DNA from: a virus
Lineage: Duplodnaviria > Heunggongvirae > Uroviricota > Caudoviricetes
IMG/VR virus record: IMGVR_UViG_2561511241_000004
Coordinates: 1 to 40,856 of that record
Length of the DNA: 40,856 nt
Direction: 5' to 3' (one strand)
Positions within the stretch are counted from its first letter, which is position 1. Each line of letters starts with the position of its first letter. A program made the translations under genes and the position numbers. Shown one piece after another: positions 1,990-39,810 of this stretch. Below the pieces are notes generated by a model. The model worked only from the letters and a program-made list of their open reading frames with translations. It made no database searches and was not told the DNA's origin.

Positions 1990-3675
1990 TTAAAAATCAG
2001 CCTGACTCGGGATCAGTTTTTGCCAGATAGCTGAAACGTATTTTGCCTGGTAACGAGCGTCATCAAGTGCATTATGGCGCTCACCTTCGAATGGAATAGC
2101 CGTTCTGGCATCGAAGTCTATGGCTTTCCCCAGCTCAACGATTGTGCGTACATCGCGATCGTTGTAGTAACGCCACGGGCAGGGGATCCCCTGCCGTTCG
2201 TATGAACGGCGCAAAATCGTGTTGTCGAAGTTGGCTCCATTTCCCCAAACCTGAACAAAAAATTCACCGGAGTTTTCGTCGATAAATTCCCGCAATTGTA
2301 ACAGTGCATCATCTAACGGGATTTCATCGGTCATAATGGCAGATTGCGCTTCGCGTGATTGCTTAAGCCACCATTTAATGGTGTCCCGATCAATGACTCC
2401 GCCAGCAGTTTCCAGATCGATAGTCTTACTAAATTCCGGTCCCATATCTCCGGTTTGCGGATCGAAAAATATTGCACCTATTGAGATGATCGGGGCATCA
2501 GGATTTTTTCCCATGGTTTCAAGGTCGATCATTAGATGGTCACACGTCCTGCTGGTGGATGTGATTTCTTGATGACCGTTCACCTTAATTGGGTGATCTG
2601 CCGTCTCGCCAGTTTCATTATCGCTATCGTGATGCTGATTGCCGCCAGTGTTCTCCTTGTGTGGATGTTCAGCGCCTTCCATTTCCTCCGGATCATCTTC
2701 CTGAACTTCAACCTGATACTCTTCATCGAATGTTTCCTGGTATGTAGCGTCGCCCATCACCGCGCCACAATCAGGGCAGTTGCCGCCGCCGGTCTGACCG
2801 CAGGCGGTGCAGACTTTTTCCACTTCCTGTTGCACTACTGGTTCAGGTAGTTTCGTTTCTGGCTCGTTTTGTTGCGTATTTTGGCTGTTTTGTTCCGCTT
2901 TCTGGTCGTTCTGTTCCGTTTCTTGCTGGTTCTGGTTCACAGAATCGCGGGTTTCAATCCCCTTCACCCATTTCGGATCATTCGGATCGCTAATCCCTGC
3001 AACAAATTCACCACGTGATACTGCAAGCAGTTCATCGGCGTCAGGCTGGCTGATATTGGCTGCCTGCATAATTTTGTTTACTTCGTCAGCGGTAACTTTT
3101 ACCGGCCCTGGTTGTGCGGTCGTGTCAGATGCACCAGTATTTTGTTGTGAACCTGAGTATGTACCGTTTTTGCGGGCGAAATATTCTTCTTTCGTGATTT
3201 CAGTAGCCCCTGCAGCCAGTGCCTTATCCAGACCAGAAAGTTTGTTTGCGCGACCGTATTTTTCGCTATCCTTGTCGGTGAAGAGGAAGTAGAACGGCCC
3301 TTCACGCTCTACAGATGGTTCGACTTCCACTTTGCATTCGGTTTTTTCGTTGTCCGGAATTGCCGTTTCCACTGCATCAGTTTCTGGTACTGGCGACGAG
3401 AGAGTATCAGTTGCGCTCTGATTTCTTCCTTCATCTTCAAACACGCCCTTTGTAGTCAGGTATTCAGTAATGTATTTGTTCAGTGCCACAGGGTCTTTGT
3501 GAATGTCGATCGGACGTTCACGGACAAGGCCAAAAATAGTCTGGCGGTCGTAGCGAAGGGCATCAGGCTGTTTGCGCATTGATGCCGAGATACGCTTCCA
3601 GTCTTCGCGGTCGTTGTCGATAACTTCTTTTTTTGCCCAGCGATGGATGCTGCCGTCAATGTTTCCGGCATCCAC
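1990..3675 (-). CDS. exonuclease, C-terminal portion with DnaQ-like DEDDh 3'-5' exonuclease domain; out of frame with the upstream portion
   Basis: C-terminal region carries Exo-like motifs (LMIDLETMG, WGNGANFD, HNALDDA); frame opens only about 30 nt upstream of its GTG, and the preceding ORF runs into junk sequence here. Confidence 0.6.
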   Translation of the reverse strand: MDAGNIDGSIHRWAKKEVIDNDREDWKRISASMRKQPDALRYDRQTIFGLVRERPIDIHKDPVALNKYITEYLTTKGVFEDEGRNQSATDTLSSPVPETDAVETAIPDNEKTECKVEVEPSVEREGPFYFLFTDKDSEKYGRANKLSGLDKALAAGATEITKEEYFARKNGTYSGSQQNTGASDTTAQPGPVKVTADEVNKIMQAANISQPDADELLAVSRGEFVAGISDPNDPKWVKGIETRDSVNQNQQETEQNDQKAEQNSQNTQQNEPETKLPEPVVQQEVEKVCTACGQTGGGNCPDCGAVMGDATYQETFDEEYQVEVQEDDPEEMEGAEHPHKENTGGNQHHDSDNETGETADHPIKVNGHQEITSTSRTCDHLMIDLETMGKNPDAPIISIGAIFFDPQTGDMGPEFSKTIDLETAGGVIDRDTIKWWLKQSREAQSAIMTDEIPLDDALLQLREFIDENSGEFFVQVWGNGANFDNTILRRSYERQGIPCPWRYYNDRDVRTIVELGKAIDFDARTAIPFEGERHNALDDARYQAKYVSAIWQKLIPSQADF

Positions 3676-4460
3676 ATCACAGGCCAGAGAGCGTAGGCCA
3701 GTTCGTCATCCAGTGTTTTCCATGTCTGCTTGTATTCGCGATGAGTGGCAGCAATGACCGGGCTGATTTTTCCTGTTGAATTTTCAGTGTTCTGTTGATT
3801 GGCTCTGGCGCGGGCGAGATCAACAACAGACGTGTATTTTCCGGTTTCCTTGCGTTCACCTTCGCGACGTTTTTTCCAGATGCGCATCTCTGCCTGAATT
3901 TCGGGCCATTTAGCACCAGGAATACATTTATGCTTAACCCACCCAATGGCGTGCAACTTAAGCTCCGGATACATGGCGTTAACTTCTGGCATTTTCATCA
4001 ACGCTTCAACGATATGTCCGTCGAATGTTGCCATGTCTTCCTGCAACAATTCCTGTGCGCTAATAACCATATCAACGGTTATGTTTTCACATGTGTCGAA
4101 CTTAACCATGACAGCGTTCTGTACTTCAGGGGCCAGCTTGTCAAAAGTGACGTTCATCGGATCGGATTCAGTCTCAACCGGGACAAAAGAAGCAGACTCC
4201 TCATCCCAGCGGTTTTCCTGCATATATTCAGCATCCCATGAATCGAGGGCAGGGCAGGGTATGCCAGGTTTATCCTCGCAGACAATAAATTTATAAGCGC
4301 AGTCCTGAGCAGCCGGATAATGTTCCAGGAATTGCCAGTGAAATTTTGCTCGAGCACGGCGTTCGTCGCCAGCTTCAATGGCTGTGGCTACAGCCACAGC
4401 GCCTTCTTCCCTTGTTGCCAGTTCGTCAGGAATAGCGGCGCAAATAAAGACTTTACTCAT
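3480..4460 (-). CDS. exonuclease N-terminal portion (YdfE-like), separated from the C-terminal portion by a frame change near 3670-3706
   Basis: Protein-like translation up to about 3680, then low-complexity junk to the stop at 3480; ATG at 4460 preferred. Confidence 0.5.
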   Translation of the reverse strand: MSKVFICAAIPDELATREEGAVAVATAIEAGDERRARAKFHWQFLEHYPAAQDCAYKFIVCEDKPGIPCPALDSWDAEYMQENRWDEESASFVPVETESDPMNVTFDKLAPEVQNAVMVKFDTCENITVDMVISAQELLQEDMATFDGHIVEALMKMPEVNAMYPELKLHAIGWVKHKCIPGAKWPEIQAEMRIWKKRREGERKETGKYTSVVDLARARANQQNTENSTGKISPVIAATHREYKQTWKTLDDELAYALWPVMWMPETLTAASIAGQKKKLSTTTAKTGSVSRHQCANSLMPFATTARLFLALSVNVRSTFTKTLWH

Positions 4461-4552
4461 TTGTTTTAACCTCATGACAGATTTAAGGATGAACAAATCC
4501 CTGCCATTGCTGGCATATAAGAATGAAACCGGATATTTATTACGGAACTGTT

Positions 4553-4929: not shown

Positions 4930-5104
4930 TATCGCGTCCTCAACAATGAATTTTGTGATGCAGTGCCTGGTGCCTCCAGGTGACGTTAACCAGTTAACAA
5001 TTAACGCCGGATACAGAGAATCCACCCATAACACTGTTTTTGGTTTTAACTGTTCCGCGTGCGCTTAGCCGCATTCACCGCATCACAAAATTCACTTTAA
5101 AAAA

Positions 5105-5158
5105 GGGCGGCAGAGCAGTCACGGAGTAAAAACTGATACCGCCAAACGTCACCAGAAA
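5105..5158 (-). ncRNA. dicF: DicF small RNA (ftsZ-targeting, Hfq-dependent in K-12)
   Basis: Minus-strand sequence UUUCUGGUGACGUUUGGCGGUAUCAGUUUUUACUCCGUGACUGCUCUGCCGCCC followed by a U-run; matches recollected DicF; sits just upstream of dicB as in Qin. Confidence 0.75.
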
Positions 5159-11420: not shown

Positions 11421-11673
11421 TAAAAATGATGAGCCGAGACTGTATTTACGGGACGCTGAGAGAATACCATAGAAAAGCTTATCTAACTTAAGTAGAATTG
11501 CTGCGGGTGCTTGAGGCTATCTGCCTCAGGCATGAACACCAAAGGCAGATAGAGAAAAGCCCCAGTTAACATTACGCGTCCTGCAAGACGCTTAACATTA
11601 ATCTGAGGCTCAATCTATGAACGGCAAATCTAGGTTAGCCTCTTACGTGCCGAAAGGCAAGGAGAAGCAGGCT

Positions 11674-11829
11674 ATGAAGCAGCAAAAGGCGATGTTAATC
11701 GCCCTGATCGTCATCTGTTTAACCGTCATTGTGACGGCACTGGTAACGAGGAAAGACCTCTGCGAGGTACGAATCCGAACCGGCCAGACGGGGGTCGCTG
11801 TCTTCACAGCTTACGAACCTGAGGAGTAA
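11674..11829 (+). CDS. hokD: Hok/Gef-family type I toxin (HokD/RelF-like, 51 aa)
   Basis: MKQQKAMLIALIVICLTVIVTALVTRKDLCEVRIRTGQTGVAVFTAYEPEE; AGGAGA RBS; in-frame upstream extension from 11617; mRNA 5'/3' complementary elements present. Confidence 0.8.
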   Translation: MKQQKAMLIALIVICLTVIVTALVTRKDLCEVRIRTGQTGVAVFTAYEPEE

Positions 11830-15243: not shown

Positions 15244-15319
15244 GGCCCTTTAGCTCAGTGGTGAGAGCGAGCGACTCATAATCGCCAGGTCGCTGGTTCA
15301 AATCCAGCAAGGGCCACCA
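15244..15319 (+). tRNA. tRNA with anticodon CAU (Ile2/Met type, ileX/ileZ-like)
   Basis: Clean cloverleaf: 7-bp acceptor stem, GCTC/GAGC D-stem, anticodon loop CUCAUAA, TTCAAAT T-loop, CCA end; very similar to E. coli ileX. Confidence 0.8.
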
Positions 15320-15320
15320 G

Positions 15321-15397
15321 CCGCCACTAGCTCATCAGGAAAGAACGTCAACCCTTTAAGTTGAGTGTGCGAGGTTCGAGTCCCCGGTGGCGGTCCA
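15321..15397 (+). tRNA. tRNA-like gene with unusual anticodon loop CCUUUAA (C at position 33); identity uncertain
   Basis: Perfect 7-bp acceptor stem, TCAAC/GTTGA anticodon stem, TTCGAGT T-loop, CCA end; mismatches in D- and T-stems. Confidence 0.5.
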
Positions 15398-15399
15398 GT

Positions 15400-15476
<77 letters not shown>

Positions 15477-15479
15477 TAT

Positions 15480-15554
<75 letters not shown>

Positions 15555-17987: not shown

Positions 17988-18471
17988 ATGTCAGGACCTC
18001 CGAAAACTCCGCCACGCCTGCATTTGATTCGAGGCAACCCCTCAAAGCGCCCCGTTAAAAGACCACAAAAAAACCGCTAAAAAGGATGAAAAAGGTCTTC
18101 CTAAAATTCCGCAGCATTTAGGGGCTCAGGGGAAGTACTGGTTCAGGCGAATGGCGGAAGAGCTGAATGCGGAAGGGATCATTTCTCAGCTTGATGCGCG
18201 TGCGCTCGAGTTGCTGGTGGAAGCCTACACCGAATATCGGCATCACTGCGAAACACTCGATGTTGAGGGGTATACCTACCGCACGGAAACGCAGAGCGGT
18301 GATGTACTGATTAAGGCGCACCCCGCGGCGGCAATGAAAGCGGATGCCTGGAAGCGGATCCGGGCAATGCTTGCAGAGTTTGGTATGTCACCGGCAAGCC
18401 GGGCTAAAGTAAATATCGCCGGACCGGATGATGTTGATCCGCTGGCGGAGCTTTTAAAAGCGAGAGACTGA
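17988..18471 (+). CDS. terminase small subunit (P27 family), reading frame interrupted at an A7 run (18067-18073)
   Basis: N-terminus MSGPPKTPPRLHLIRGNPSKRPVKRPQK in one frame stops at 18078-18080; the remainder (...KKDEKGLPKIPQHLGAQGKYWFRRMAEEL...) is in the +1 frame; removing one A joins them. Confidence 0.65.
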
Positions 18472-20239: not shown

Positions 20240-20422
20240 ATGTTTCTGATAATTCTCACACCACTGGTGGGCGTGCTGGGGGCGCTTTTGCTGTCGTACG
20301 GCGCATGGCTGATTTATCCCCCGGCAGGTTTTGTTGTTGCCGGGGCGCTGTGCCTGTGCTGGTCGTGGCTGGTTGCGCGTTATCTCGATCGCGGTCAGTG
20401 GGTCGCCTCCGGAGGTGAGTAA
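20240..20422 (+). CDS. small hydrophobic protein between terminase and portal (60 aa)
   Basis: GAGG RBS; two hydrophobic segments. Confidence 0.4.
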
Positions 20423-21663
20423 TGTTTTTCCAGGGGCTTTTTCAACGCAAAAATAACACTCCCGTTACAACACCCGGGATGCTTGCGGAAGAGCTGGGAT
20501 TGTCATACGACACCTATACCGGAAAGCGGATCAGCAGTCAGCGGGCCATGCGGCTGACGGCGGTGTATTCCTGCGTCAGAGTGCTGGCGGAGTCTGTTGG
20601 TATGCTGCCCTGCAGCCTCTACAAAATCACCGGCACCCTTAAAACACGGGCGGTGGATGAACGACTGCATAAGCTGATTTCGGCAAAACCCAATGGCTAC
20701 ATGACACCGCAGGAATTCTGGGAGCTGGTTATCGTCTGCCTGTGTCTGCGGGGTAATTTTTACGCTTACAAGGTGAAGGCGCTGGGAGAAGTGGTGGAGC
20801 TTCTTCCGATAGATCCGGGTTGTGTGGAGCCGAAGCTGAACTGTCAGTGGCAGCCGGTTTATCAGGTGACGTTTCCGGATGGTTCCGTGGATGTGCTGAC
20901 CCAGGATGAAATCTGGCATGTGCGTACTCTGACACTGGACGGGCTGGTCGGGCTGAATCCCATTGCATATGCGCGTGAGGCCATTTCACTGGCAGCGGCA
21001 ACTGAGGAGCACGGCGCCAGGCTGTTTGGTAACGGCGCTGTGACATCCGGTGTGTTGCGTACGGATCAACAACTTTCTGATCAGGCTTATGCGCGTATCA
21101 AAAAGGACTTTGAGGAACGGCATGTCGGGCTGGGAAATTCTCATCGTCCGATGATTCTGGAAATGGGGCTGGACTGGAAAACGGTGGCACTGAATGCCGA
21201 GGACAGCCAGTTCCTGGAAACCCGTAAGTTTCAGCTGGAAGAAATCTGTCGTCTGTTCCGCGTGCCACTGCATATGGTGCAGAACACTGACCGCGCCACC
21301 TTCAACAATATTGAAGAGCTGGGGCTTGGTTTCATTAACTATTCCCTTGTGCCGTATCTGACCCGTATTGAACAGCGGATCAATACAGGGCTGGTCAGGG
21401 AGAGCAAGCAGGGGAAGTTTTACGCCAAATTTAATGCCGGAGCATTGTTGCGTGGCGACATGAAATCCCGCTTTGAAGCGTATGCCACGGGGATCAACTG
21501 GGGGATTTATTCCCCTAATGACTGCCGTGATCTGGAGGATATGAATCCTCGCCCGGGCGGTGATGTGTATCTGACACCGATGAACATGACCACCAGTCCC
21601 TCTGCTGGCGATGACAACGGTAAGAAAAAGGAGAGTGGAGATGCAGACAAAACAGCGTCTTGA
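20422..21663 (+). CDS. portal protein (HK97 family)
   Basis: 413 aa; position and sequence character of HK97-type portals. Confidence 0.9.
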   Translation: MFFQGLFQRKNNTPVTTPGMLAEELGLSYDTYTGKRISSQRAMRLTAVYSCVRVLAESVGMLPCSLYKITGTLKTRAVDERLHKLISAKPNGYMTPQEFWELVIVCLCLRGNFYAYKVKALGEVVELLPIDPGCVEPKLNCQWQPVYQVTFPDGSVDVLTQDEIWHVRTLTLDGLVGLNPIAYAREAISLAAATEEHGARLFGNGAVTSGVLRTDQQLSDQAYARIKKDFEERHVGLGNSHRPMILEMGLDWKTVALNAEDSQFLETRKFQLEEICRLFRVPLHMVQNTDRATFNNIEELGLGFINYSLVPYLTRIEQRINTGLVRESKQGKFYAKFNAGALLRGDMKSRFEAYATGINWGIYSPNDCRDLEDMNPRPGGDVYLTPMNMTTSPSAGDDNGKKKESGDADKTAS

Positions 21664-22291
21664 TATACCGCTGAACCTGAAATCCGTCAGTGATTCCGGG
21701 GAATTTGAAGGTTACGGTTCTGTTTTTGGTGTTAAGGACAGCCACGATGATGTGGTGGTCCCCGGTGCCTTTACCACAACACTCCAGAAATGGAGCGAAA
21801 AAAAGGCGCTGCCTGCGTTGCTCTGGCAGCACCGTATGGATGAGCCCATCGGTGTGTACACCGAAATGAAAGAAGATGATGTCGGGCTTTATGTCAGGGG
21901 GCGATTACTCGTTGATGATGATCCCCTGGCAAAACGTGCACATGCCCATATGAAGGCCGGTTCTTTAACCGGCCTTTCTATTGGCTACATCCTGAAAGAC
22001 TGGGAGTACGACCGTGAAAAAGGGGTATTCCTGCTGAAAGAGATCGACCTGTGGGAGGTCAGTCTGGTGACGTTTCCTTGCAATGATGAGGCACGTATCA
22101 GCGATGTGAAAAATGCGCTGGCGCGTGGGGAGATCCCTGATCAGAAAATTATTGAGCGGGTCCTGCGCGATGTTGGACTCTCGCGAACCCAGGCCAAAGC
22201 ATTCATGGCCGGGGGATATGGCGCTTTATCCCTGCGTGATGCTGAGGATGTGGATGCCGCACTGAATGCACTGAAAAATCTTAAATTTTAA
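21641..22291 (+). CDS. prohead protease (HK97 family)
   Basis: GGAGAGTGGAG RBS; between portal and major capsid; overlaps the portal 3' end. Confidence 0.85.
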   Translation: MQTKQRLDIPLNLKSVSDSGEFEGYGSVFGVKDSHDDVVVPGAFTTTLQKWSEKKALPALLWQHRMDEPIGVYTEMKEDDVGLYVRGRLLVDDDPLAKRAHAHMKAGSLTGLSIGYILKDWEYDREKGVFLLKEIDLWEVSLVTFPCNDEARISDVKNALARGEIPDQKIIERVLRDVGLSRTQAKAFMAGGYGALSLRDAEDVDAALNALKNLKF

Positions 22292-22305
22292 CCAGGAGAA
22301 AAATA

Positions 22306-23529
22306 ATGGCTGACATTAAAGATGTGGAGCAGGTCGCGCAGGAGCTGCAGCAGAAGTTTGACGATTTTAAGGCAAAAAACGACAAGCGCATTGACGCGAT
22401 CGAACAGGAAAAAGGCAAGCTGGCCGAACAGGTGGAAAGCCTGAACGGGCAAATCAGCGAGCTGGAGAACCTGAAAAGCGATCTTGAGGCTGAACTGGCT
22501 GAAGTTAAACGTCCGGCAGGCGGCACGCAAAATAAAGTTGCCGGTGAACATAAAGAAGCGTTTATCGGTTTTATGCGCAAGGGGCGTGAAGACGGTCTGC
22601 GTGAGCTTGAGCGTAAGGCGCTGCAGGTGGGCAATGATGAAGATGGTGGTTATGCCATTCCGGAAGAACTGGATCGCACCATTCTGACGCTGCTGAAAGA
22701 TGAGGTGGTGATGCGCCAGGAAGCCACTGTGATCACCCTCGGTGGCTCGGATTATAAAAAACTGGTGAATCTGGGCGGCACAACGTCCGGATGGGTGGGG
22801 GAAACGGATGCACGTCCTGAAACCGCCACCTCAAAACTGGGTCTGATTGAACCCTTTATGGGGGAAATCTACGGCAACCCGCAGGCCACCCAGAAAATGC
22901 TCGATGATGCTTTCTTCAATGTGGAAGACTGGATCAACAGTGAACTGGCGCTGGAATTTGCCGAACAGGAAGAAATTGCCTTTACCAGTGGCGACGGCAG
23001 CAAAAAACCAAAAGGTTTTCTGGCTTATGAGTCCACTGATGAAGATGACAAGACCCGTGCATTTGGCAAACTTCAGCACATTGCTTCCGGTGCGGCTTCT
23101 GGCGTGACCGCCGATGCGATTATTAAACTGATTTACACCCTGCGCAAGGCGCACCGCAGCGGCGCGAAGTTCATGATGAACAACAGCAGCCTGTTTGCCA
23201 TTCGTCTGCTGAAGGATAACGACGGAAATTATCTGTGGCGTCCGGGTATTGAGCTGGGTCAGCCTTCTTCTCTGGCAGGGTATGGCATCGTTGAAAATGA
23301 GCAGATGCCGGATATTGCCGCCGATGCAAAAGCCATTGCGTTTGGTAATTTCAAACGTGGCTATACCATCGTTGATCGCATCGGCACCCGCATCCTGCGC
23401 GATCCTTACACCAACAAACCGTTTGTGGGCTTTTATACCACCAAACGAACCGGCGGTATGCTGGTGGATTCTCAGGCGATTAAGCTGATGAAAATTGGGG
23501 CTGCAACCCGCCAGAAAGCCGCTGCGTAA
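22306..23529 (+). CDS. major capsid protein (HK97 fold, with N-terminal coiled-coil delta domain)
   Basis: 407 aa; N-terminal heptad-rich region then capsid domain. Confidence 0.9.
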   Translation: MADIKDVEQVAQELQQKFDDFKAKNDKRIDAIEQEKGKLAEQVESLNGQISELENLKSDLEAELAEVKRPAGGTQNKVAGEHKEAFIGFMRKGREDGLRELERKALQVGNDEDGGYAIPEELDRTILTLLKDEVVMRQEATVITLGGSDYKKLVNLGGTTSGWVGETDARPETATSKLGLIEPFMGEIYGNPQATQKMLDDAFFNVEDWINSELALEFAEQEEIAFTSGDGSKKPKGFLAYESTDEDDKTRAFGKLQHIASGAASGVTADAIIKLIYTLRKAHRSGAKFMMNNSSLFAIRLLKDNDGNYLWRPGIELGQPSSLAGYGIVENEQMPDIAADAKAIAFGNFKRGYTIVDRIGTRILRDPYTNKPFVGFYTTKRTGGMLVDSQAIKLMKIGAATRQKAAA

Positions 23530-23574
23530 TGCGGTTTTTTTGTGCCCGCACAGTGTTGCGGGCAGGAGTTTCTG

Positions 23575-23892
23575 ATGGCAGCAATAGTGGAAAAACTCAG
23601 GGCGCAGTGCCGTATTGATACAGATGATGCAACTGATGATGAGTTACTGATGCTGTATTTCCGGGCGGCCTGCCGCAAGGCAGAAAATTTTATCAACCGT
23701 AAGCTTTATGAGGAGGCGGTGCCGGAAGGTGATCCTGAAGGGGTGCTTATAGCTGATGATGTTTTGCTGGCGCTCATGTTGCTGGTCGGACACTGGTACG
23801 AAAACCGGGAAAATTCCTCAGATGTCAGCAAGGTACCAGTCCCGTTTGGTTTTTCTTCTCTGCTGGAGCCTTATCGTTTTATTCCTTTGTAG
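23575..23892 (+). CDS. head-tail connector protein (gp6-like)
   Basis: AGGAG RBS; first gene after the major capsid; about 105 aa. Confidence 0.6.
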   Translation: MAAIVEKLRAQCRIDTDDATDDELLMLYFRAACRKAENFINRKLYEEAVPEGDPEGVLIADDVLLALMLLVGHWYENRENSSDVSKVPVPFGFSSLLEPYRFIPL

Positions 23893-23900
23893 GAGGAGGC

Positions 23901-24239
23901 ATGCAGGCGGGCAGATTACGTGATCGCGTAATTATTCTGAATGTCACCACCGCCCGCTCTCCGTCAGGGCATCCGGTGGAGACGGTGACGGAGGGAGCTA
24001 CCGTATGGGCAGAAGTTAAGGGTATCAGCGGGAGGGAGATAATCTCAGGTGGAGCAGAAACCGCTCAGGCTACGGTCAGAGTCTGGATGAGATTCCGGCG
24101 CGATGTGACAGCGACTTCACGTCTGAAAGTGCTGACCGGTGCATTTAAAGGGGCCATTCTGGGTATAGAAGGTCCACCAATACCGGATGCACGCGCCACC
24201 CGGCTTGAGATACTCTGTTCTCAGAAGGGGAATGTGTGA
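23901..24239 (+). CDS. head-tail joining / head closure protein
   Basis: GGAGGAGG RBS; size and position in an HK97-like head completion module. Confidence 0.55.
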   Translation: MQAGRLRDRVIILNVTTARSPSGHPVETVTEGATVWAEVKGISGREIISGGAETAQATVRVWMRFRRDVTATSRLKVLTGAFKGAILGIEGPPIPDARATRLEILCSQKGNV

Positions 24240-24685
24240 TGGATTTCAGTCTTGATTTTTCAGGTCTGGCGGATATTGCACGGGATCTGGAGACGCTCAG
24301 CAGGGCAGAAAACAATAAGGTACTGCGCGATGCCACCCGTGCCGGTGCTGAAGTTATGCGGGATGCAGTTGTTGAACGTGCGCCGGAGCGAACCGGGAAA
24401 CTGAAAAAAAATGTGGTTGTTCTCACTCAGCGTTCAAAGCGTCGGGGGGAAATTATCTCGGGTGTCCACATTCGCGGACGGAACCTGCGAACCGGAAACA
24501 GTGATAACAGCATGAAAGCCAGCGATCCCCGAAATGCGTTTTACTGGCGCTTTGTGGAGCTGGGAACGATAAACATGCCCGCGCATCCGTTCATTCGCCC
24601 GGCTTTCGATACGACAGAGGAACTGGCAGCACAGATTGCCATACAGCGAATGAATCAGGCTATTGATGAGGTCTTAAGTAAATGA
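24239..24685 (+). CDS. HK97 gp10-like tail component protein
   Basis: Size and synteny; ATG overlaps the upstream stop. Confidence 0.55.
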   Translation: MDFSLDFSGLADIARDLETLSRAENNKVLRDATRAGAEVMRDAVVERAPERTGKLKKNVVVLTQRSKRRGEIISGVHIRGRNLRTGNSDNSMKASDPRNAFYWRFVELGTINMPAHPFIRPAFDTTEELAAQIAIQRMNQAIDEVLSK

Positions 24686-25026
24686 GGGAAGCCACACTGT
24701 ATTCCCTGCTGTCTCAGCTGGCCGGAGGACAGGTTTATCCTTATGTGGTCCCGCTGACGGAGGGAAAGCCTGCGGTATCTCCGCCGTGGCTGGTGTTTTC
24801 TGTGGTGTCTGACACGGCATCTGATGTGCTTGATGGTCAGGCTGAATCCAGAATTACCGTGCAGATCGATGTCTGGGCGACAGTACCTGATGACGCAGAT
24901 AATATTCGTGAGCAGGCGCTTGATGCGGTAAGAAAACTGGCACCCTCCGTTATTTCTAAAACGCAGGGTTATGATCCTGACTCCCGTCTGAGCAGAGCCA
25001 CGCTTGAATTCCAGGTAATAGCCTGA
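24682..25026 (+). CDS. tail completion / tail terminator-like protein
   Basis: Size and synteny; ATGA overlap with the upstream gene. Confidence 0.5.
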   Translation: MREATLYSLLSQLAGGQVYPYVVPLTEGKPAVSPPWLVFSVVSDTASDVLDGQAESRITVQIDVWATVPDDADNIREQALDAVRKLAPSVISKTQGYDPDSRLSRATLEFQVIA

Positions 25027-25047
25027 GGTCATTAATGATTTTATCCA

Positions 25048-25069
25048 CCCGCCGCTGGCGGGTTTTTTA
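25048..25069 (+). terminator. terminator-like hairpin immediately upstream of the major tail gene (possible attenuator or mRNA stabiliser)
   Basis: cccgcc-gct-ggcggg followed by tttttt, then the major tail RBS. Confidence 0.35.
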
Positions 25070-25085
25070 TTTTCAGGAGACGAGT

Positions 25086-25790
25086 ATGTCCTCTAATTTT
25101 GAGCGTTCGCAACTGACGAAAATTATGATTTCGTCTGCACCGGTAACCGCAGAAACCCTGGATTCTGCCAGCTATCTTGGCCTGAGCTGTACAATCAAAG
25201 AGGTGCAGTTTACCGCAGGACAAAAGCAGGATATTGATGTCACCACGCTGTGTTCTGTTGAGCAGGAAAATATTAACGGCCTTGGTGCCGCGTCAGAGAT
25301 TTCCATGTCAGGCAACTTTTATCTCAATGCTGCCCAGAACGCGTTGCGCAGTGCCTATGACAATGACACCACGTATGGCTTTAAAGTTATTTTTCCGTCA
25401 GGCAACGGATTTACCTTTATGGCAGAGGTGCGTCAGCATACCTGGTCTGCAGGAACCAATGGTGTTGTGGCTGCAACGTTTTCCCTGCGTCTGAAAGGTA
25501 AACCTGTGCTGACGACAGAGCCGCTGAAAGTGAAAGTCGATTTAAACAGCACGCTGCAGGTTTCTGCCGGAGCGAAACTCGAAATGGTGGTTGAGGCTGC
25601 CGGTGGTGTGCCGCCTTATTCTTATGTCTGGAAGAAAGGTAGTTCTCCTGTTTCCGGACAGACGGCGGCAACGTTCAGTAAGGCATCAGCAGCATCAGGT
25701 GATGCCGGTGCGTATACCTGCGAGATTTCTGACTCAGCAAGCCCTGTTAACAAGGTGACCTCCACTTCCTGCACTGTTACCGTCAGTTAA
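25086..25790 (+). CDS. major tail protein with C-terminal Ig-like domain
   Basis: CAGGAGA RBS; lambda V-like position; C-terminal beta-rich region typical of Ig-like decoration domains. Confidence 0.75.
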   Translation: MSSNFERSQLTKIMISSAPVTAETLDSASYLGLSCTIKEVQFTAGQKQDIDVTTLCSVEQENINGLGAASEISMSGNFYLNAAQNALRSAYDNDTTYGFKVIFPSGNGFTFMAEVRQHTWSAGTNGVVAATFSLRLKGKPVLTTEPLKVKVDLNSTLQVSAGAKLEMVVEAAGGVPPYSYVWKKGSSPVSGQTAATFSKASAASGDAGAYTCEISDSASPVNKVTSTSCTVTVS

Positions 25791-26176
25791 TGAGGATAGA
25801 TGTGATGACTAAAAATATCCGCAATCTGGCACTGGCAACGATGTCGGGGTTTCGCCACAAAACTGTTGATGTGCCTGAATGGGAAGGGGCAACGGTTGTA
25901 TTACGGGAACCTTCTGCAGAAGCCTGGTTGCGCTGGCAGGAGATCGTTAAAGCAAAAGATGATGAGACACCGTTATCCGTTGCGGAGCGCGCCCGCCGAA
26001 ATCTGGAGGCAGATGTTGAACTGTTCATTGATGTTCTGTGTGATACCGGACTGCAACCTGTATTTTCAGAGGATGATCGTGAACGGGTGATTGCCGTGTA
26101 TGGCCCGGTGCATGCGCGGCTTCTTCGGCAGTCTCTGGAACTGATCAGTGATGCCGGCGAGGTTAAAAAAAAGTAG
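25790..26176 (+). CDS. tail assembly chaperone (lambda G-like)
   Basis: Ends ...GEVKKK at a slippery A-run; immediately followed by a -1 frame ORF. Confidence 0.7.
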   Translation: MRIDVMTKNIRNLALATMSGFRHKTVDVPEWEGATVVLREPSAEAWLRWQEIVKAKDDETPLSVAERARRNLEADVELFIDVLCDTGLQPVFSEDDRERVIAVYGPVHARLLRQSLELISDAGEVKKK

Positions 26177-26478
26177 CGCTTCCGGGGATGCGTTTTCTGA
26201 TGATGCTGGCGCTCAGGATGGGGCGCACATTGTCAGAGTTACGCCGGGAAATGTCCGCATCAGAAATCATGATGTGGGCAGAATTTGACAGGTTCAGCCC
26301 GCTGGGTGACGAGCGGGCTGATATCCGGGCTGCCCAGATAGTTTCTGCGGTTTACGGTGCGCAGGGTGTCAAAGTCCCACTGAATGATGCGCTTCTTCAG
26401 TGGGAACAAGAGCAGACAGAAGGCGTCTCAGATCCATTTGCCGGACTGGAAAACGCGCTTTTAATAGTGTCTCAGTGA
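25790..26478 (+). CDS. tail assembly chaperone G-T fusion made by programmed -1 ribosomal frameshift
   Basis: Heptamer A AAA AAG at 26167-26173; the -1 frame is open from 26167 to 26478 (KKVALPGMRFLMM...). Confidence 0.6.
26167..26173 (+). other. slippery heptamer A AAA AAG (-1 programmed frameshift site)
   Basis: Within an A8 run at the 3' end of the G-like gene; conserved lambdoid G/GT mechanism. Confidence 0.6.
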
Positions 26479-26486
26479 GTCAACAT

Positions 26487-26508
26487 AACCGCTTCGGCGG
26501 TTTTTTTC
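26487..26508 (+). terminator. terminator-like UUCG hairpin between the T and tape measure genes
   Basis: accgc-ttcg-gcggt followed by ttttttt. Confidence 0.35.
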
Positions 26509-26517
26509 GTCCGGAGA

Positions 26518-27975
26518 ATGAGTGTGGCGACATTACGTGAACTGATTATTAAAATCTCGGCAAATTCCCGGTCATTCCAGTCAGAGATCTCCCGGGCTTC
26601 GCGTATGGGGCAGGATTACTACCGTACCATGCAGAACGGAGGCCGGCAGTCCGCTGCTGCATCCCGTGAAATGCGGCGTGCACTGGCAGAAGTGACGGAT
26701 CAGATAAATACAGCTAAATCTTCGGCACTGAACATGGCTGGCGCATTTGCCGGTGCTTTTGCCACTGGACATCTTATATCTCTTGCGGATGAATGGAGTT
26801 CAGTAAATGCCCGTCTGAAGCAGGCCTCACAGTCCAGTGATGATTTTCAGGCATCACAGCGTGAATTAATGGCGATCAGCCAGAAAACGGGGACGGCGTT
26901 TTCTGATAACGCACGCCTTTTTGCCCGTTCTGCAGCTTCCATGCGGGAGTATGGTTACAGTTCTGAGGAAGTACTGAAAGTCACCGAGGCGATCTCCACG
27001 GGCCTGAATTTATCCGGTGCCAGTACAGCAGAAGCCAGTTCGGTGATCACGCAGTTCAGTCAGGCACTGGCGCAGGGAGTGCTGCGCGGTGAAGAGTTTA
27101 ACTCGGTGAATGAGAACGGCGATCGTGTTATTCGTGCGCTGGCTGCGGGAATGGGTGTTGCCCGTAAGGATCTGAAGGCCATGGCGGATAACGGAAAACT
27201 GACCACCGATAAGGTTGTTCCTGCACTGATTAGTCAGCTTGGGGCATTACGTGATGAATATGCGGCAATGCCTGATACGGTTTCATCCTCTGCAACCAAA
27301 GTTGAAAACGCCTTTATGGCCTGGGTTGGTGGTGCGAACGAGGCAAGCGGAGTGACGAAGACGCTCTCCGGTGTGCTGAATGGTATTGCAGGCAATATTG
27401 ACACCGTGGCAACCGCTGCCGGTGCTCTGGTTGCCGTCGGGGTAGCCCGATATTTTGGCAATATGGCGTCTTCTGCTGGATCTGCAACTGCCGGATTAAT
27501 TACTGCAGCCAGAAACGAAGTGGCTCTTGCGGAAGCGCAACTCCGGGGGACACAGATAGCAACAGCCAGGGCGCGTGCGGCGGTTTATCGTGCGCAACAG
27601 GCAGTTGTGGCTACCCGTGGTACAGAAAGGCAGGCAGCCGCAGAAGCGAAACTGGCTGCTGCCCAGGCATCACTTACCCGTAATATTGCGGCCAGAACAG
27701 CAGCACAGACAACGCTGAATACTGTCACGTCAGTGGGGAGCCGTTTGTTAAGTGGGGCACTGGGGCTGGTTGGGGGTGTGCCGGGGCTTGTCATGCTGGG
27801 AGCCGCGGCCTGGTACACGACTGTATCAGAATCAGGAGCAGGCCAGAGAATCTGCACGCCAGTATGCCGCAACAATCGACGAAATTCGCCAGAAAACCGT
27901 CGGCAATGTCGCTTCCTGAAGCGTCAGATAATGAGGAAAAGACGCGGCAGGCACTTGATGAGCAAAACAGGTTAA
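26518..27975 (+). CDS. tail tape measure protein, N-terminal fragment (credible to about 27835, then junk)
   Basis: Coiled-coil rich, ends with hydrophobic ...GGVPGLVMLGAAAWY; translation after about 27840 is Arg/Cys junk. Confidence 0.6.
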   Translation: MSVATLRELIIKISANSRSFQSEISRASRMGQDYYRTMQNGGRQSAAASREMRRALAEVTDQINTAKSSALNMAGAFAGAFATGHLISLADEWSSVNARLKQASQSSDDFQASQRELMAISQKTGTAFSDNARLFARSAASMREYGYSSEEVLKVTEAISTGLNLSGASTAEASSVITQFSQALAQGVLRGEEFNSVNENGDRVIRALAAGMGVARKDLKAMADNGKLTTDKVVPALISQLGALRDEYAAMPDTVSSSATKVENAFMAWVGGANEASGVTKTLSGVLNGIAGNIDTVATAAGALVAVGVARYFGNMASSAGSATAGLITAARNEVALAEAQLRGTQIATARARAAVYRAQQAVVATRGTERQAAAEAKLAAAQASLTRNIAARTAAQTTLNTVTSVGSRLLSGALGLVGGVPGLVMLGAAAWYTTVSESGAGQRICTPVCRNNRRNSPENRRQCRFLKRQIMRKRRGRHLMSKTG

Positions 27976-28082
27976 TTGACGAGCAGAAAAGTAAGATTAA
28001 ATCCTTACAGGAAAAAATTGCTGGCTATCAGTATGTGCTGGCAAACCCGGGCTGGACAACCGATAACGGTTTTTATGATTAA
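27864..28082 (+). CDS. tape measure protein, middle fragment in a different frame
   Basis: Protein-like ...LPEASDNEEKTRQALDEQNRLIDEQKSKIKSLQEKIAGYQYVLANPGW...; a third frame gives QEQARESARQYAATIDEIRQKTVGNVAS over 27833-27916. Confidence 0.4.
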   Translation: MPQQSTKFARKPSAMSLPEASDNEEKTRQALDEQNRLIDEQKSKIKSLQEKIAGYQYVLANPGWTTDNGFYD

Positions 28083-28117
28083 CCACATGACGTCGGTAAA
28101 AACTGTCACAGAAGGGC

Positions 28118-29755
28118 TTGCAGAAGCAACAAATCAACTGGCAGTTGAAACAGTCTCGCCTCACTCAAATGCAGGGCAAAGCGCAATCCATTCAGGATGT
28201 GCTTGCCGGGCTGGAGGAGCGACGGGTGGCGTTGATTCGTCAACAGGCGGCGGAGCAAAATAAAGCGTATCAGTCCCTGTTGATCATGAATGGTCAGTAC
28301 ACTGAGTTTAATCACCTTCTCGGGCTTGGTAATGAGTTACTTCAGCAGCGTCAGGGGCTGGTGAATGTACCATTACGGCTGCCACAGGCCACCCTGGATG
28401 ATAAACAGCAGACAGCACTGAATAACAGCGAGCGCGAACTGGCTCTGTCCCGCCTGAAGGGGGAAGCCCGTGAGCGTGCCCGCCTGGGTTATGCTGCGGA
28501 TGATCTCGGCTTTGTGGGAGAGGCATATCAGACAGCAAGACTGAATTATATTAATAATTCACTGGATGCATGGCGAAATAACCAGGCAAATAAACCCAAA
28601 GCGCATAAAAAGACCGAAGCGGAAAAAACAGAAGATATTTATAAACGGCTGATTAAACAGCAGAAAGAGCAGATAGCACTGGCAGGGCAGAATACTGAAC
28701 TGGCTAAGATGAAATATCAGGTCAGTCAGGGCGAATTATCAACCCTGTCAGAAGCGCAGAAAAAAACGCTTTTGCAGAATGCAGCACTCATCGACCAGAA
28801 AAAGATTCGTGAGCAGCTTGCTGCGTATGAGAGCAGTCTGGCGGACAGTAATGCCAGTGCCCGGGCATCTGACGAAGCGCAGTTGCTGGGATATGGTGAA
28901 GGCTCACGGATGCGTGAACGACTCCAGGAAATGTGGAGTATCCGGCAGGCGTTTGAGCAGAAAAATAACGAGCTGCTGAGACAGTATCAGGCCGGAGAAA
29001 TTGAAGAAGCCCTGTGGAAACAGGAGAAAGAACTGAATAAAAAATATCTGGAAGAGCGTCTCAGCGATCAGCAGGATTATTATGCAAAGGCCGATGCTTT
29101 ACGTAATAACTGGAATGCCGGACTCCAGGAGGGACTGACCAACTGGGCAGACAGTGCCACCGATTATGCTTCACAGGCGGCAGATGCTGTCGTTTCCACG
29201 ATGGACGGGCTGGTATCAAATATTTCCGATGCACTGGCCGGGAATGTTGTGGACTGGAGGAACTGGGGGAGTTCAGTTCTCCGGGAAGTTTCAAAAATTC
29301 TGATGAATGCAGCCATTGTTAACGGACTGAAATCACTCTCCGGTGCCGGAGGGTGGCTTGGTACGGTCGGCGGATGGATTTCGGGGGCAGTGGCAAACGC
29401 AAAAGGTGGTGTTTACACATCGGCAAATCTGAGTGCTTACAGTAACACTATTGTGGATACACCGACGTATTTTGCTTTTGCGAAAGGTGCCGGGTTGATG
29501 GGCGAGGCCGGGCCTGAAGCAATCATGCCACTGACACGGGCAGCGGACGGCTCTCTTGGGGTCAGGGCCATTGGAAATGTGAATGGTGGTGGTGGATTTG
29601 TTTATTCTCCCGTGTATCACATCAGCATTCAGAATCAAGGGAGCAATGGCGAGATAGATGCGCGCTCAGCCAGGGGACTGGTGGATCTGATCGACAGCAG
29701 GGTTGTGTCAATTATGCAGTCATCGCGTCGGGATGGAGGATTGTACAGTGCCTGA
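28118..29755 (+). CDS. tail tape measure protein, C-terminal fragment (lambda H-like C-terminus)
   Basis: Frame open from 28100; C-terminal region resembles lambda H (...GLMGEAGPEAIMPL...). Confidence 0.65.
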   Translation: MQKQQINWQLKQSRLTQMQGKAQSIQDVLAGLEERRVALIRQQAAEQNKAYQSLLIMNGQYTEFNHLLGLGNELLQQRQGLVNVPLRLPQATLDDKQQTALNNSERELALSRLKGEARERARLGYAADDLGFVGEAYQTARLNYINNSLDAWRNNQANKPKAHKKTEAEKTEDIYKRLIKQQKEQIALAGQNTELAKMKYQVSQGELSTLSEAQKKTLLQNAALIDQKKIREQLAAYESSLADSNASARASDEAQLLGYGEGSRMRERLQEMWSIRQAFEQKNNELLRQYQAGEIEEALWKQEKELNKKYLEERLSDQQDYYAKADALRNNWNAGLQEGLTNWADSATDYASQAADAVVSTMDGLVSNISDALAGNVVDWRNWGSSVLREVSKILMNAAIVNGLKSLSGAGGWLGTVGGWISGAVANAKGGVYTSANLSAYSNTIVDTPTYFAFAKGAGLMGEAGPEAIMPLTRAADGSLGVRAIGNVNGGGGFVYSPVYHISIQNQGSNGEIDARSARGLVDLIDSRVVSIMQSSRRDGGLYSA

Positions 29756-30089
29756 GCCTGAAGTTTTTAACTGGATCCCCCGTGAGGGGATGGAGACGAC
29801 ACGAAAGCCATCAGTTATTACGGTAAAGTTTGGTGACGGATATGAACAGCGACGGGCTGGTGGTCTGAATGCGGATCTGAAAACGTTTAAACCGGTATTT
29901 CGTGTCACAGATGAATATTCCCGTGCCGCGCTGGACAGTTTTTTATCCCGTCATGCCGGGATTCGTGCTTTTTTGTGGCGTCCGCCAAAACACAACAGGA
30001 CTGTCCGGGTTGTCTGCAGGGAGTGGAGCATTTCGGATAATGCCATGTATACCGATTTTAACTGTACCTTTGAAGAGGTCACTCACTGA
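29748..30089 (+). CDS. M: minor tail protein M
   Basis: Lambda M-like (...KFGDGYEQRRAGGLNADLKT...); GTG at 29748 with GGAGGA RBS preferred over the ATG at 29733. Confidence 0.8.
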   Translation: MPEPEVFNWIPREGMETTRKPSVITVKFGDGYEQRRAGGLNADLKTFKPVFRVTDEYSRAALDSFLSRHAGIRAFLWRPPKHNRTVRVVCREWSISDNAMYTDFNCTFEEVTH

Positions 30090-30787
30090 TGCAGGATATA
30101 CAGCAGGAAACACTCAATGAGTGCACTAAAACGGAGCAATCCGCGCTGGTCGTGCTCTGGGAAATTGATCTGACAGAGGTCGGCGGAGATCGTTATTTCT
30201 TCTGTAATGAGCAGAACGAAAAAGGTGAACCAGTCACCTGGCAGGGGCGGCAGTATCAGGCTTATCCCATTCAGGGAAGCGGATTTGAGATGAACGGCAA
30301 AGGAGCCAGTGCAAGGCCAACGCTTAAAGTCTCTAATCTGTACGGCATGGTCACCGGGATGGCGGAAGATCTGCAGAGTCTGGTCGGCGGAACGGTGGTC
30401 CGGCGTAAGGTTTACGCCCGTTTTCTGGATGCGGTGAACTTCGTCAACGGAAACAGTGACGCCGATCCGGAGCAGGAGGTGATCAGCCGCTGGCGCATCG
30501 AACAGTGCAGCGAACTGAGCGCGGTCAGTGCCTCTTTTGTGCTGTCCACACCGACGGAAACGGATGGCGCTGTTTTTCCGGGGCGCATCATGCTGGCCAA
30601 CACCTGCACCTGGATCTACCGCGGCGATGAGTGCGGTTATGATGGCCCGGCGGTCGCGGATGAATATGACCAGCCAACGTCCGATATCACGAAGGATAAA
30701 TGCAGCAAATGCCTGAGTGGTTGCAAGTTCCGCAATAACGTCGGCAATTTTGGCGGCTACCTTTCCATTAACAAACTTTCGCAGTAA
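30089..30787 (+). CDS. L: minor tail protein L
   Basis: 232 aa, lambda L-like with C-terminal Cys cluster. Confidence 0.9.
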   Translation: MQDIQQETLNECTKTEQSALVVLWEIDLTEVGGDRYFFCNEQNEKGEPVTWQGRQYQAYPIQGSGFEMNGKGASARPTLKVSNLYGMVTGMAEDLQSLVGGTVVRRKVYARFLDAVNFVNGNSDADPEQEVISRWRIEQCSELSAVSASFVLSTPTETDGAVFPGRIMLANTCTWIYRGDECGYDGPAVADEYDQPTSDITKDKCSKCLSGCKFRNNVGNFGGYLSINKLSQ

Positions 30788-30791
30788 ACCC

Positions 30792-31535
30792 ATGACAGAG
30801 ACAGAATCAGCGATTCTGGCGCACGCCCGGCGATGTGCGCCAGCGGAGTCGTGCGGCTTCGTGGTGAGAACGCCGGAGGGGGACAGATATTTTCCCTGCG
30901 TGAATATCTCCGGTGAGCCGGAGGCGTATTTCCGGATGTCGCCGGAGGACTGGCTGCGGGCAGAGATGCAGGGTGAGATTGTGGCGCTGGTCCACAGCCA
31001 CCCCGGTGGTCTGCCCTGGCTGAGTGAGGCCGACCGGCGGCTGCAGGTGCAGAGTGATTTGCCGTGGTGGCTGGTCTGCCGTGGGGAGATTCATAAATTC
31101 CGCTGTGTGCCGTATCTCACCGGGCGGCGCTTTGAGCACGGGGTGACGGACTGTTACACGCTGTTCCGGGATGCTTACCATCTGGCGGGGATTGAGATGC
31201 CGGATTTTCATCGCGAGGATGACTGGTGGCGTCACGGTCAGAATCTCTATCTGGATAATCTGGAGGCCACAGGGCTGTATCAGGTGCCGTTGTCAGCGGC
31301 GCAGCCGGGCGATGTGCTGCTGTGCTGTTTTGGTTCATCGGTGCCGAATCATGCCGCCATTTACTGTGGTGACGGCGAGCTGCTGCACCATATTCCTGAA
31401 CAACTGAGCAAACGAGAGAGGTATACCGACAAATGGCAGCGACGCACACAATCCCTCTGGCGTCACCAGGCATGGCACGCATCTGCCTTTACGGGGATTT
31501 ACAACGATTTGTCCGCCGCATCGATCTGCGTGTGA
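30792..31535 (+). CDS. K: tail assembly protein K (JAB/MPN plus NlpC/P60-like)
   Basis: Lambda K-like (HSHPGG...); overlaps the start of I. Confidence 0.85.
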   Translation: MTETESAILAHARRCAPAESCGFVVRTPEGDRYFPCVNISGEPEAYFRMSPEDWLRAEMQGEIVALVHSHPGGLPWLSEADRRLQVQSDLPWWLVCRGEIHKFRCVPYLTGRRFEHGVTDCYTLFRDAYHLAGIEMPDFHREDDWWRHGQNLYLDNLEATGLYQVPLSAAQPGDVLLCCFGSSVPNHAAIYCGDGELLHHIPEQLSKRERYTDKWQRRTQSLWRHQAWHASAFTGIYNDLSAASICV

Positions 31536-32074
31536 AAACGGGGGCCGAAGCCATCCGGGCGCTGGCCATGCAGATCCCGGCGTTTCGTCAGAAGCTGAGC
31601 GACGGCTGGTATCAGGTACGCATTGCCGGGCGTGATACAGGTGAAACGGAATTATCAGCCCGTCTTAATGAACCGCTGGCAAATGGTGCTGTGATCCATA
31701 TCGTGCCGCGTCTGGCAGGAGCCAAAAGTGGCGGTGTGTTTCAGGCTGTGCTGGGGGCGGCTGTTATGGCGGTTGCTATATGGATGCCGGGGGTAGGAAT
31801 TATGGCGAGTAATCTGCTGTTTTCTCTCGGTGCCAGTATGACGCTTGGCGGTGTTGCACAGATGCTGGCCCCTAAACCCAAAACCCCCCGCACACAGACA
31901 ACGGATAACGGCAAACAGAACACCTATTTTTCTTCACTGGATAATATGGTTGCCCAGGGCAATGTTCTGCCCGTTCTGTACGGTGAAATGCGCGTGGGAT
32001 CACGTGTGGTATCTCAGGAGATCAGCACAGCAGATGAAGGTGATGGTGGTCAGGTTGTGGTGATTGGTCGCTGA
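31433..32074 (+). CDS. I: tail assembly protein I
   Basis: Near-identical to lambda I at both ends (MAATHTIPLASPGMARICLYGDLQRF... ...EGDGGQVVVIGR). Confidence 0.9.
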   Translation: MAATHTIPLASPGMARICLYGDLQRFVRRIDLRVKTGAEAIRALAMQIPAFRQKLSDGWYQVRIAGRDTGETELSARLNEPLANGAVIHIVPRLAGAKSGGVFQAVLGAAVMAVAIWMPGVGIMASNLLFSLGASMTLGGVAQMLAPKPKTPRTQTTDNGKQNTYFSSLDNMVAQGNVLPVLYGEMRVGSRVVSQEISTADEGDGGQVVVIGR

Positions 32075-39226: not shown

Positions 39227-39810
39227 TGGCATTCAGAATGAGTGAACAACCACGGACCATAAAAATTTATAATCTGCTGGCCGGAACTAATGAATTTATT
39301 GGTGAAGGTGACGCATATATTCCGCCTCATACAGGTCTGCCAGCAAACAGTACCGATATTGCACCACCAGATATTCCTGCTGGCTTTGTGGCTGTTTTCA
39401 ACAGTGATGAGGCATCGTGGCATCTCGTTGAAGACCATCGGGGTAAAACGGTTTATGACGTAGCGTCAGGGGACGAGTTATTTATTTCTGAACTCGGTCC
39501 GTTACCGGAAAATGTTACCTGGTTATCGCCGGAAGGGGAGTTTCAGAAGTGGAACGGCACAGCCTGGGTGAAGGATACGGAAGCAGAAAAACTGTTCCGG
39601 ATCCGGGAGGCGGAAGAAACAAAAAACAACCTGATGCAGGTAGCCAGTGAGCATATTGCGCCGCTTCAGGATGCTGCAGATCTGGAAATTGCAACGGAGG
39701 AAGAAACCTCATTGCTGGAAGCCTGGAAAAAGTATCGGGTGTTGCTGAACCGTGTTGATACATCAACTGCACCTGATATTGAGTGGCCTACGAACCCTGT
39801 CAGGGAGTAA
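39226..39810 (+). CDS. tfa: tail fibre assembly protein (Tfa)
   Basis: 194 aa, [18 protein letters not shown]... Tfa family; immediately follows stf. Confidence 0.85.
39656..39810 (+). repeat. direct repeat copy 1 (tfa 3' region, about 85% identical to 40697..40856)
   Basis: Aligned by eye: gcgcc(g/a)ct(t/g)caggatgctg(c/t)agatctggaaat(t/c)gcaacggaggaagaaa... Confidence 0.6.

Follow-up and report, generated by a model that had tools for sequence, protein, structure and literature searches.

Four single-base insertions that interrupt a prophage tail tape measure gene in the E. coli UMNK88 chromosome are probably sequence errors

The prophage tail module and its tape measure gene

The window, the whole stretch of 40,856 nucleotides that was analyzed, corresponds to CP002729.1:1364882-1405737, and two loci taken from CP002729.1 (L124 and L128) were 100% identical to it. 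The accession is given as the chromosome of E. coli UMNK88, a porcine enterotoxigenic strain (PMC4358887). The window contains a prophage that is inserted between potC and potB, possesses early genes of the DicB/DicF/YdfD/RusA type, and includes a lambdoid prophage tail module of E. coli (Table 1). The order of protein families along this module (Phage_TAC_1, Phage_tail_T, tape measure, Phage_min_tail, Phage_tail_L, NLPC_P60, Lambda_tail_I, and GpJ) places the gene of interest where a tape measure is expected. Its start, as annotated in relatives, is a GTG codon at 26524, and an in-frame ATG is also present at 26518.

Table 1. Coordinates of the tail-module genes, the four insertions, and the other private indels of the window

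Feature	Position in window	Strand	Remarks
Private indel, -C	3679/80		Exonuclease (823 aa) broken into products of 326 and 499 aa
Private indel, -T	4459-62		Non-coding; adjoins the exonuclease gene start
Private indels, +A	5099-5104 and 5128-5132		Non-coding; terminator tract and body of the DicF RNA
Private indel, +A (AAA to AAAA)	18060		Breaks terS; small terminase shortened from 160 to 106 aa
Major tail protein gene	25035-25790		Followed in module order by G, T, tape measure, M, L, K, I, J
Tail assembly chaperone gene G	25790-26176	+	Intact; upstream of the tape measure gene
Candidate programmed -1 slippery site, A AAA AAG	26167-26173		In the chaperone G/T region
Tail assembly chaperone gene T	26188-26478	+	Intact; upstream of the tape measure gene
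Tail tape measure gene (lambda gpH / HK97 type)	26524-29755	+	Five frame segments as deposited
Insertion 1, extra C	27821	+	acgaCtgtat, outside any homopolymer; frame of 26524 to frame of 27752
Insertion 2, C to CC	27897-27898	+	aaaaCCgtc; reading passes to frame of 27864
Insertion 3, T4 to T5	28070-28074	+	cggTTTTTatg; reading passes to frame of 27976, true peptide MINHMTSVKTVTEGLAEATNQLAVE
Insertion 4, AA to AAA	28148-28150	+	ttgAAAcag; reading passes to frame of 28118 (remaining 1.6 kb)
Tail-tip genes M, L, K, I	29703-32074	+	All intact; downstream of the tape measure gene

The open reading frame (ORF) listing resolved the tape measure gene into five segments (26518-27975, 27752-27919, 27864-28082, 27976-28263, and 28118-29755) that occupy all three forward frames, so that no single ORF of ~1075 codons was present as deposited; one was obtained only with four bases deleted. 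Removal of the bases at 27821, 27898, 28074, and 28150 yielded a 3228-nt ORF encoding 1075 aa. The genes M, L, K, and I were uninterrupted, and the breaks are thus confined to the tape measure gene.

The repaired protein, identical to UniRef UPI0002A41427, matched TMP_3 (PF20155, 191.9 bits), Phage_HK97_TLTM (PF06120, 305.1 bits), and Tape_meas_lam_C (PF09718, 50.8 bits), with all three scores above the curated cut-offs and the domains in the expected order; these matches bear out the tape measure assignment made in a first-pass annotation of the window. In the deposited sequence the domains are split between fragments of 483 and 528 aa. Compared with tape measures of the lambda gpH and HK97 gp16 type, the gene has the same domain set and order and the same position after G/T and before M-L-K-I-J, and its length of 1075 aa matches once the four bases are removed, whereas the deposited ORF is cut inside PF06120, and neither the 483-aa nor the 528-aa fragment covers profile positions ~41-155. 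Judged by its domains and location, this is a typical tape measure gene of the lambda gpH / HK97 family.

Four single-base insertions private to one assembly

Alignment of the gene to intact homologues from an E. coli chromosome and a phage, followed by local BLAST against many more sequences, placed four single-base insertions. All four are +1 changes. Three of them lengthen an existing run, although the runs are short (1, 4, and 2 bases), and one lies at a non-run site. A non-run base inserted between A and T can only be C or G, and a test of 454 flow-order consistency at this site was therefore rejected as uninformative. The density is 4 extra bases in 330 nt, or ~1.2%, and because the net shift is +4, the closing 1.6 kb of the gene is in the +1 frame with respect to its opening 1.3 kb. 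The pieces read in shifted frames agree with the intact protein at every residue, which shows that the frame breaks did not arise from chance reading of other frames. Every insertion falls inside the PF06120 domain.

The first-pass annotation had described multiple, sharply localized frame breaks in this gene and had proposed alignment to an intact homologue, along with re-sequencing, as a check; the ORF listing, the sequence, and the alignment, which located the insertions, all agree with that description. Its count of at least three frame changes was correct in recognizing multiple shifts but too low, since the alignment gives four. The jump that it read as the third, from GFYD to LQKQQINWQLKQSRL, is really two jumps, the true reading being ...GF/MINHMTSVKTVTEGLAEATNQLAVE/QSRLTQMQ..., and the string QKQQINWQLK in its text results from reading the true sequence, ...EATNQLAVE, out of frame. 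Similarly, the interval to which it assigned the damage (27800-28120) encloses the first three sites, but the fourth (28148-50) lies just past its end.

The surroundings of the insertions were unremarkable. Within 1 kb we found no inverted repeat, a single direct repeat of 17 nt that is at chance level, and no anomaly of composition, and the four insertion contexts have no common motif. An intrinsic natural hotspot built on local repeats, hairpins, or composition was considered and rejected, as none of these was found around the insertions. Programmed recoding, by which the ribosome or RNA polymerase would correct the four shifts or separate N- and C-terminal proteins would be made, was also weighed, because a candidate slippery sequence is present in the neighboring G/T chaperone genes, and programmed -1 frameshifting does operate in the G/T genes of such phages. 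At the tape measure sites, however, all homologues are continuous; the four sites share no slippery motif, each would need a +1 shift, and the gene remains out of frame at a net +4. Moreover, a tape measure acts as a single unbroken polypeptide, and its length determines that of the tail, as is established for lambda gpH. A conserved change at a slippery motif was found at none of the four sites, and the absence of conservation among homologues effectively refutes recoding, to which we give almost no credence.

Apart from the four bases, the gene was clean, as the first-pass annotation had stated: the repaired 3228-nt ORF had 0 nt differences from those of five independent assemblies (L134, L129, L132, L125, and L127) and 1 from that of L133. 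Seven assemblies with an identical J protein are all without the four insertions. The comparison was extended over the portal-to-gpI module (11,653 bp, window positions 20422-32074), where L127 and L132 are the closest of the five identical-gene assemblies. Over this 11.65-kb module the window differed from either of them by one substitution and four one-base gaps. In contrast, any two of L125, L127, L129, and L132 were separated by 0-1 substitutions and no indel, and more distant natural pairs exhibited 2 gaps per ~85 substitutions or 11-12 per ~380. With an indel-to-substitution ratio of 4:1 and all of its indels in 330 bp, the window is a strong outlier. For random sites, clustering of four indels within 330 bp of the 10.9-kb alignment has P ~1e-4.

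Database searches gave the same picture. In a collection of ~15 billion proteins, the repaired protein had exact matches on 18 contigs, whereas the 483-aa N-terminal fragment and the 528-aa fragment were encoded on one contig only, CP002729.1, and have no protein accession. An exact-pattern scan of IMG/VR for each of the four insertion alleles returned 0 contigs; as a wild-type control, the un-inserted T4 allele of site 3 was present on 116 IMG/VR contigs, compared to 0 for the T5 allele. The insertion 1 allele was not found in the GTDB representative genomes. The segment was present in ~1,900 RefSeq complete E. coli records, the best of them at 96.6% identity, a value showing that none of those records is the window's allele. 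The insertions exist in the deposited sequence, are private to CP002729.1, and account for essentially everything that separates it from independent copies. In one further assembly, L161, the tape measure gene contains frameshifts private to that assembly, which indicates that assembly-specific damage of this kind recurs.

Origin of the insertions

The window contains five further private indels, all of them run-length changes (Table 1). Those of the early region were absent from 10 of 10 relatives. The nine private indels are all located within the prophage, and no indels were detected in ~10.7 kb of flanking host genes. The 106-aa form of TerS is present on 54 contigs, but CP002729 alone has the +A at 18060; the terS frameshift was accordingly rejected as a real shared mutation, since the other assemblies reach the 106-aa product via different frameshifts in nearby A-runs. 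UMNK88 encodes the 106-aa TerS twice (AEE56036.1 and AEE57045.1), so the strain possesses at least two related prophages.

The four frame breaks likely reflect base-calling or assembly errors that were left uncorrected when the UMNK88 chromosome was deposited, and the true gene almost certainly encodes the 1075-aa tape measure without interruption. Error is favored by the combination of private insertions, no accompanying substitutions in the gene, changes that are all +1 and mostly of run length, and other private indels in the same assembly. The pattern is that of an artefact: the lesion is private to one assembly, and the otherwise identical sequence is intact in independent assemblies. A ~330-bp patch with very low effective read support inside the prophage module would account for it. 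We infer the cause (error rather than mutation) as well as the reason for such a local patch, which would likely be poor effective coverage or gap closure in DNA repeated between prophages. E. coli genomes often contain several copies of such modules, which would make them hard to assemble and polish; the tape measure segment occurred in up to 7 copies in a single E. coli genome. The UMNK88 genome was presumably made by 454 pyrosequencing in about 2011, and a raw density of ~1.2% across roughly one read length would be expected of one unpolished 454 read or of the low-quality tail of a Sanger gap-closing read. The insertions resemble known assembly artefacts of early pyrosequencing or unpolished long reads, which typically occur in repeated prophage DNA, in being single-base, private, and located in a prophage. 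Three of the four change the length of a run, albeit a short one, and the fourth does not; their density of 4 in 330 bp is unusually high for such artefacts.

Several observations run against error. Insertion 1 lies outside a homopolymer, and the runs at two other sites are only 1-2 bases long; such sites would be atypical for consensus-level 454 errors unless the coverage was very low. The restriction of the nine private indels to the prophage, with none in ~10.7 kb of host flank, is also what genuine prophage decay would look like. Finally, the fragments apparently have no depositor protein IDs, and the depositors may have judged the breaks to be real.

These points lead to the main alternative, a genuine and very recent inactivation in which four real +1 insertions left a defective prophage that forms no tails and has a broken terS and exonuclease gene as well; a single bout of error-prone synthesis might then explain the cluster. 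E. coli genomes commonly contain defective lambdoid prophages, the deposited sequence is indeed broken, other genes of the prophage have private frameshifts, and the private indels are all in prophage DNA with none in the host DNA examined. The prophage also resembles the K-12 cryptic prophages Rac, Qin, and DLP12 in being lambdoid, in its DicB/DicF/YdfD/RusA-type early genes, and in having several morphogenesis genes disrupted as written. Those prophages, however, exhibit large deletions, IS insertions, and many substitutions, whereas the module of the window is essentially identical to intact copies. Four insertions against one substitution in 11.65 kb, with all four insertions inside 330 bp (P ~1e-4), is not what genuine inactivation predicts, nor is the presence of the broken allele in one assembly only, compared to 18 contigs with the intact protein; the insertions also occur without a local repeat or structure. 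Natural small indels in bacteria favor deletions and long runs, so the uniform +1 character of the four changes argues against this origin, and we know of no bacterial mutational process that gives pure +1 bursts at short or non-run sites without substitutions. A genuine pseudogene would be expected to have a lesion that is inherited by relatives or accompanied by neutral changes; here the fragments were on 1 contig, and substitutions numbered 0 in the gene and 1 in 11.65 kb. Genuine inactivation is, in our judgment, unlikely. A still less probable version is that the four real +1 insertions arose together in a single local event (e.g., a base-adding, error-prone repair patch) that turned tails off in an otherwise pristine prophage.

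Mis-assembly of two related prophage copies, with reads from a truly degraded second copy collapsed or chimerized into this locus, would be compatible with the presence of at least two related prophages in UMNK88, as indicated by the duplicated TerS, and with the multiplicity of the segment in E. coli genomes. A degraded donor should bring substitutions, but none are present across 3.2 kb, and none of the four insertions turned up elsewhere in IMG/VR or the protein collection or, for insertion 1, in the GTDB representatives. We regard this origin as very improbable.

Consequences for use of the UMNK88 sequence

Uncorrected sequence error remains the preferred reading of the tape measure breaks, and most likely the four breaks are not a real feature and represent no new biology. 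The suggestion in the first-pass annotation that a broken tape measure would block tail assembly holds for the sequence as written, from which no functional tape measure can be encoded, but actual biological damage is probably wrong given that the insertions are private to CP002729.1. If the insertions were real, the locus would count as another defective prophage, one whose mutational signature is odd; if they arose in a single event, it would illustrate a clustered frameshift burst in nature. The indel patches in the CP002729.1 prophage generate false pseudogenes (tape measure, small terminase, and exonuclease) and an altered DicF sequence. Prophage-intactness calls, pseudogene counts, and sRNA comparisons drawn from CP002729.1 would therefore mislead, and its uncritical use would be unwise.

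Single-base indels in phage genes

In the locus L161 (GCA_030346105.1), the tape measure gene carries its own private single-C indels at positions equivalent to 27018 and 29488 of the window, and the gene was not called in that assembly. These indels are a further example of assembly-specific frameshift damage in the tape measure gene. The RecE/YdfE-like exonuclease is 823 aa long in ten relatives, whereas in the window a 1-base deletion found only in the UMNK88 chromosome assembly (CP002729) divides its gene into products of 326 aa and 499 aa. A second private deletion (-T at 4459-4462) directly adjoins the exonuclease start codon. Nearby, CP002729 has a private extra A/T within the DicF sRNA at 5128-5132 and another at 5099-5104, in the T-tract just 3' of DicF. 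Counted together with the two exonuclease deletions, these form a second patch, of four private indels in 1.45 kb. Expansion of AAA to AAAA in terS, also private to CP002729, shifts the frame to give a product of 106 aa rather than 160 aa. The 106-aa TerS product was nonetheless found on 54 contigs, because other assemblies have different frameshifts in nearby A7/A8 runs, and it is encoded twice in UMNK88 (AEE56036.1 and AEE57045.1).

Coordinates of features in the window
Feature	Position	Strand	Details
RecE/YdfE-like exonuclease gene	1990-4460	-	missing C at 3679/3680
DicF sRNA	5105-5157	-	Rfam RF00039, 69.9 bits
hok/sok locus, Sok RNA	11505-11679		RF01794
Genes for four phage tRNAs (Met, Lys, Thr, Gly)	15244-15554		downstream of Q
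terS (small terminase subunit gene)	17988-18471		extra A at 18057-18060
Gene G end	26165-26176		GTT AAA AAA AAG TAG
236-aa ORF	30083-30793	-	antisense to entire tail gene L
IS009 RNA match	39569-39767		RF02111; within tail fibre assembly gene region

The G/T chaperone genes and an antisense ORF

Near the end of gene G, the sequence A AAA AAG (26167-26173) is a classic -1 slippery heptamer and a candidate frameshift site, and the -1 frame has no stop between 26173 and 26478, a stretch that takes in the T ORF. On the basis of this heptamer and open frame, a G-T fusion chaperone would be expected to arise by programmed frameshifting, as it does in lambda. The slippery run is A7 in some long-read relatives versus A8 in the window. 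The ORF opposite tail gene L is most likely spurious; its counterpart is annotated as "hypothetical protein" in one phage record (ON470580.1).

The head-tail module and prophage arrangement

Comparison of the window with four loci from other assemblies (L125, L127, L129, and L132) revealed an 11.65-kb head-tail module (20422-32074) in which prophages carried by different E. coli strains differ by 0-1 bases, whereas the flanking modules of those prophages diverge by 1-10%. This pattern suggests that the module has spread horizontally very recently. The early region of the window adjoins potC, as it likewise does in the close relative CP137721.1 (L155/L137), but the J/stf end of a prophage with the identical J protein there abuts yodB/zinT, not potB. 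These junctions suggest that a rearrangement between two prophages took place in one of the two strains.
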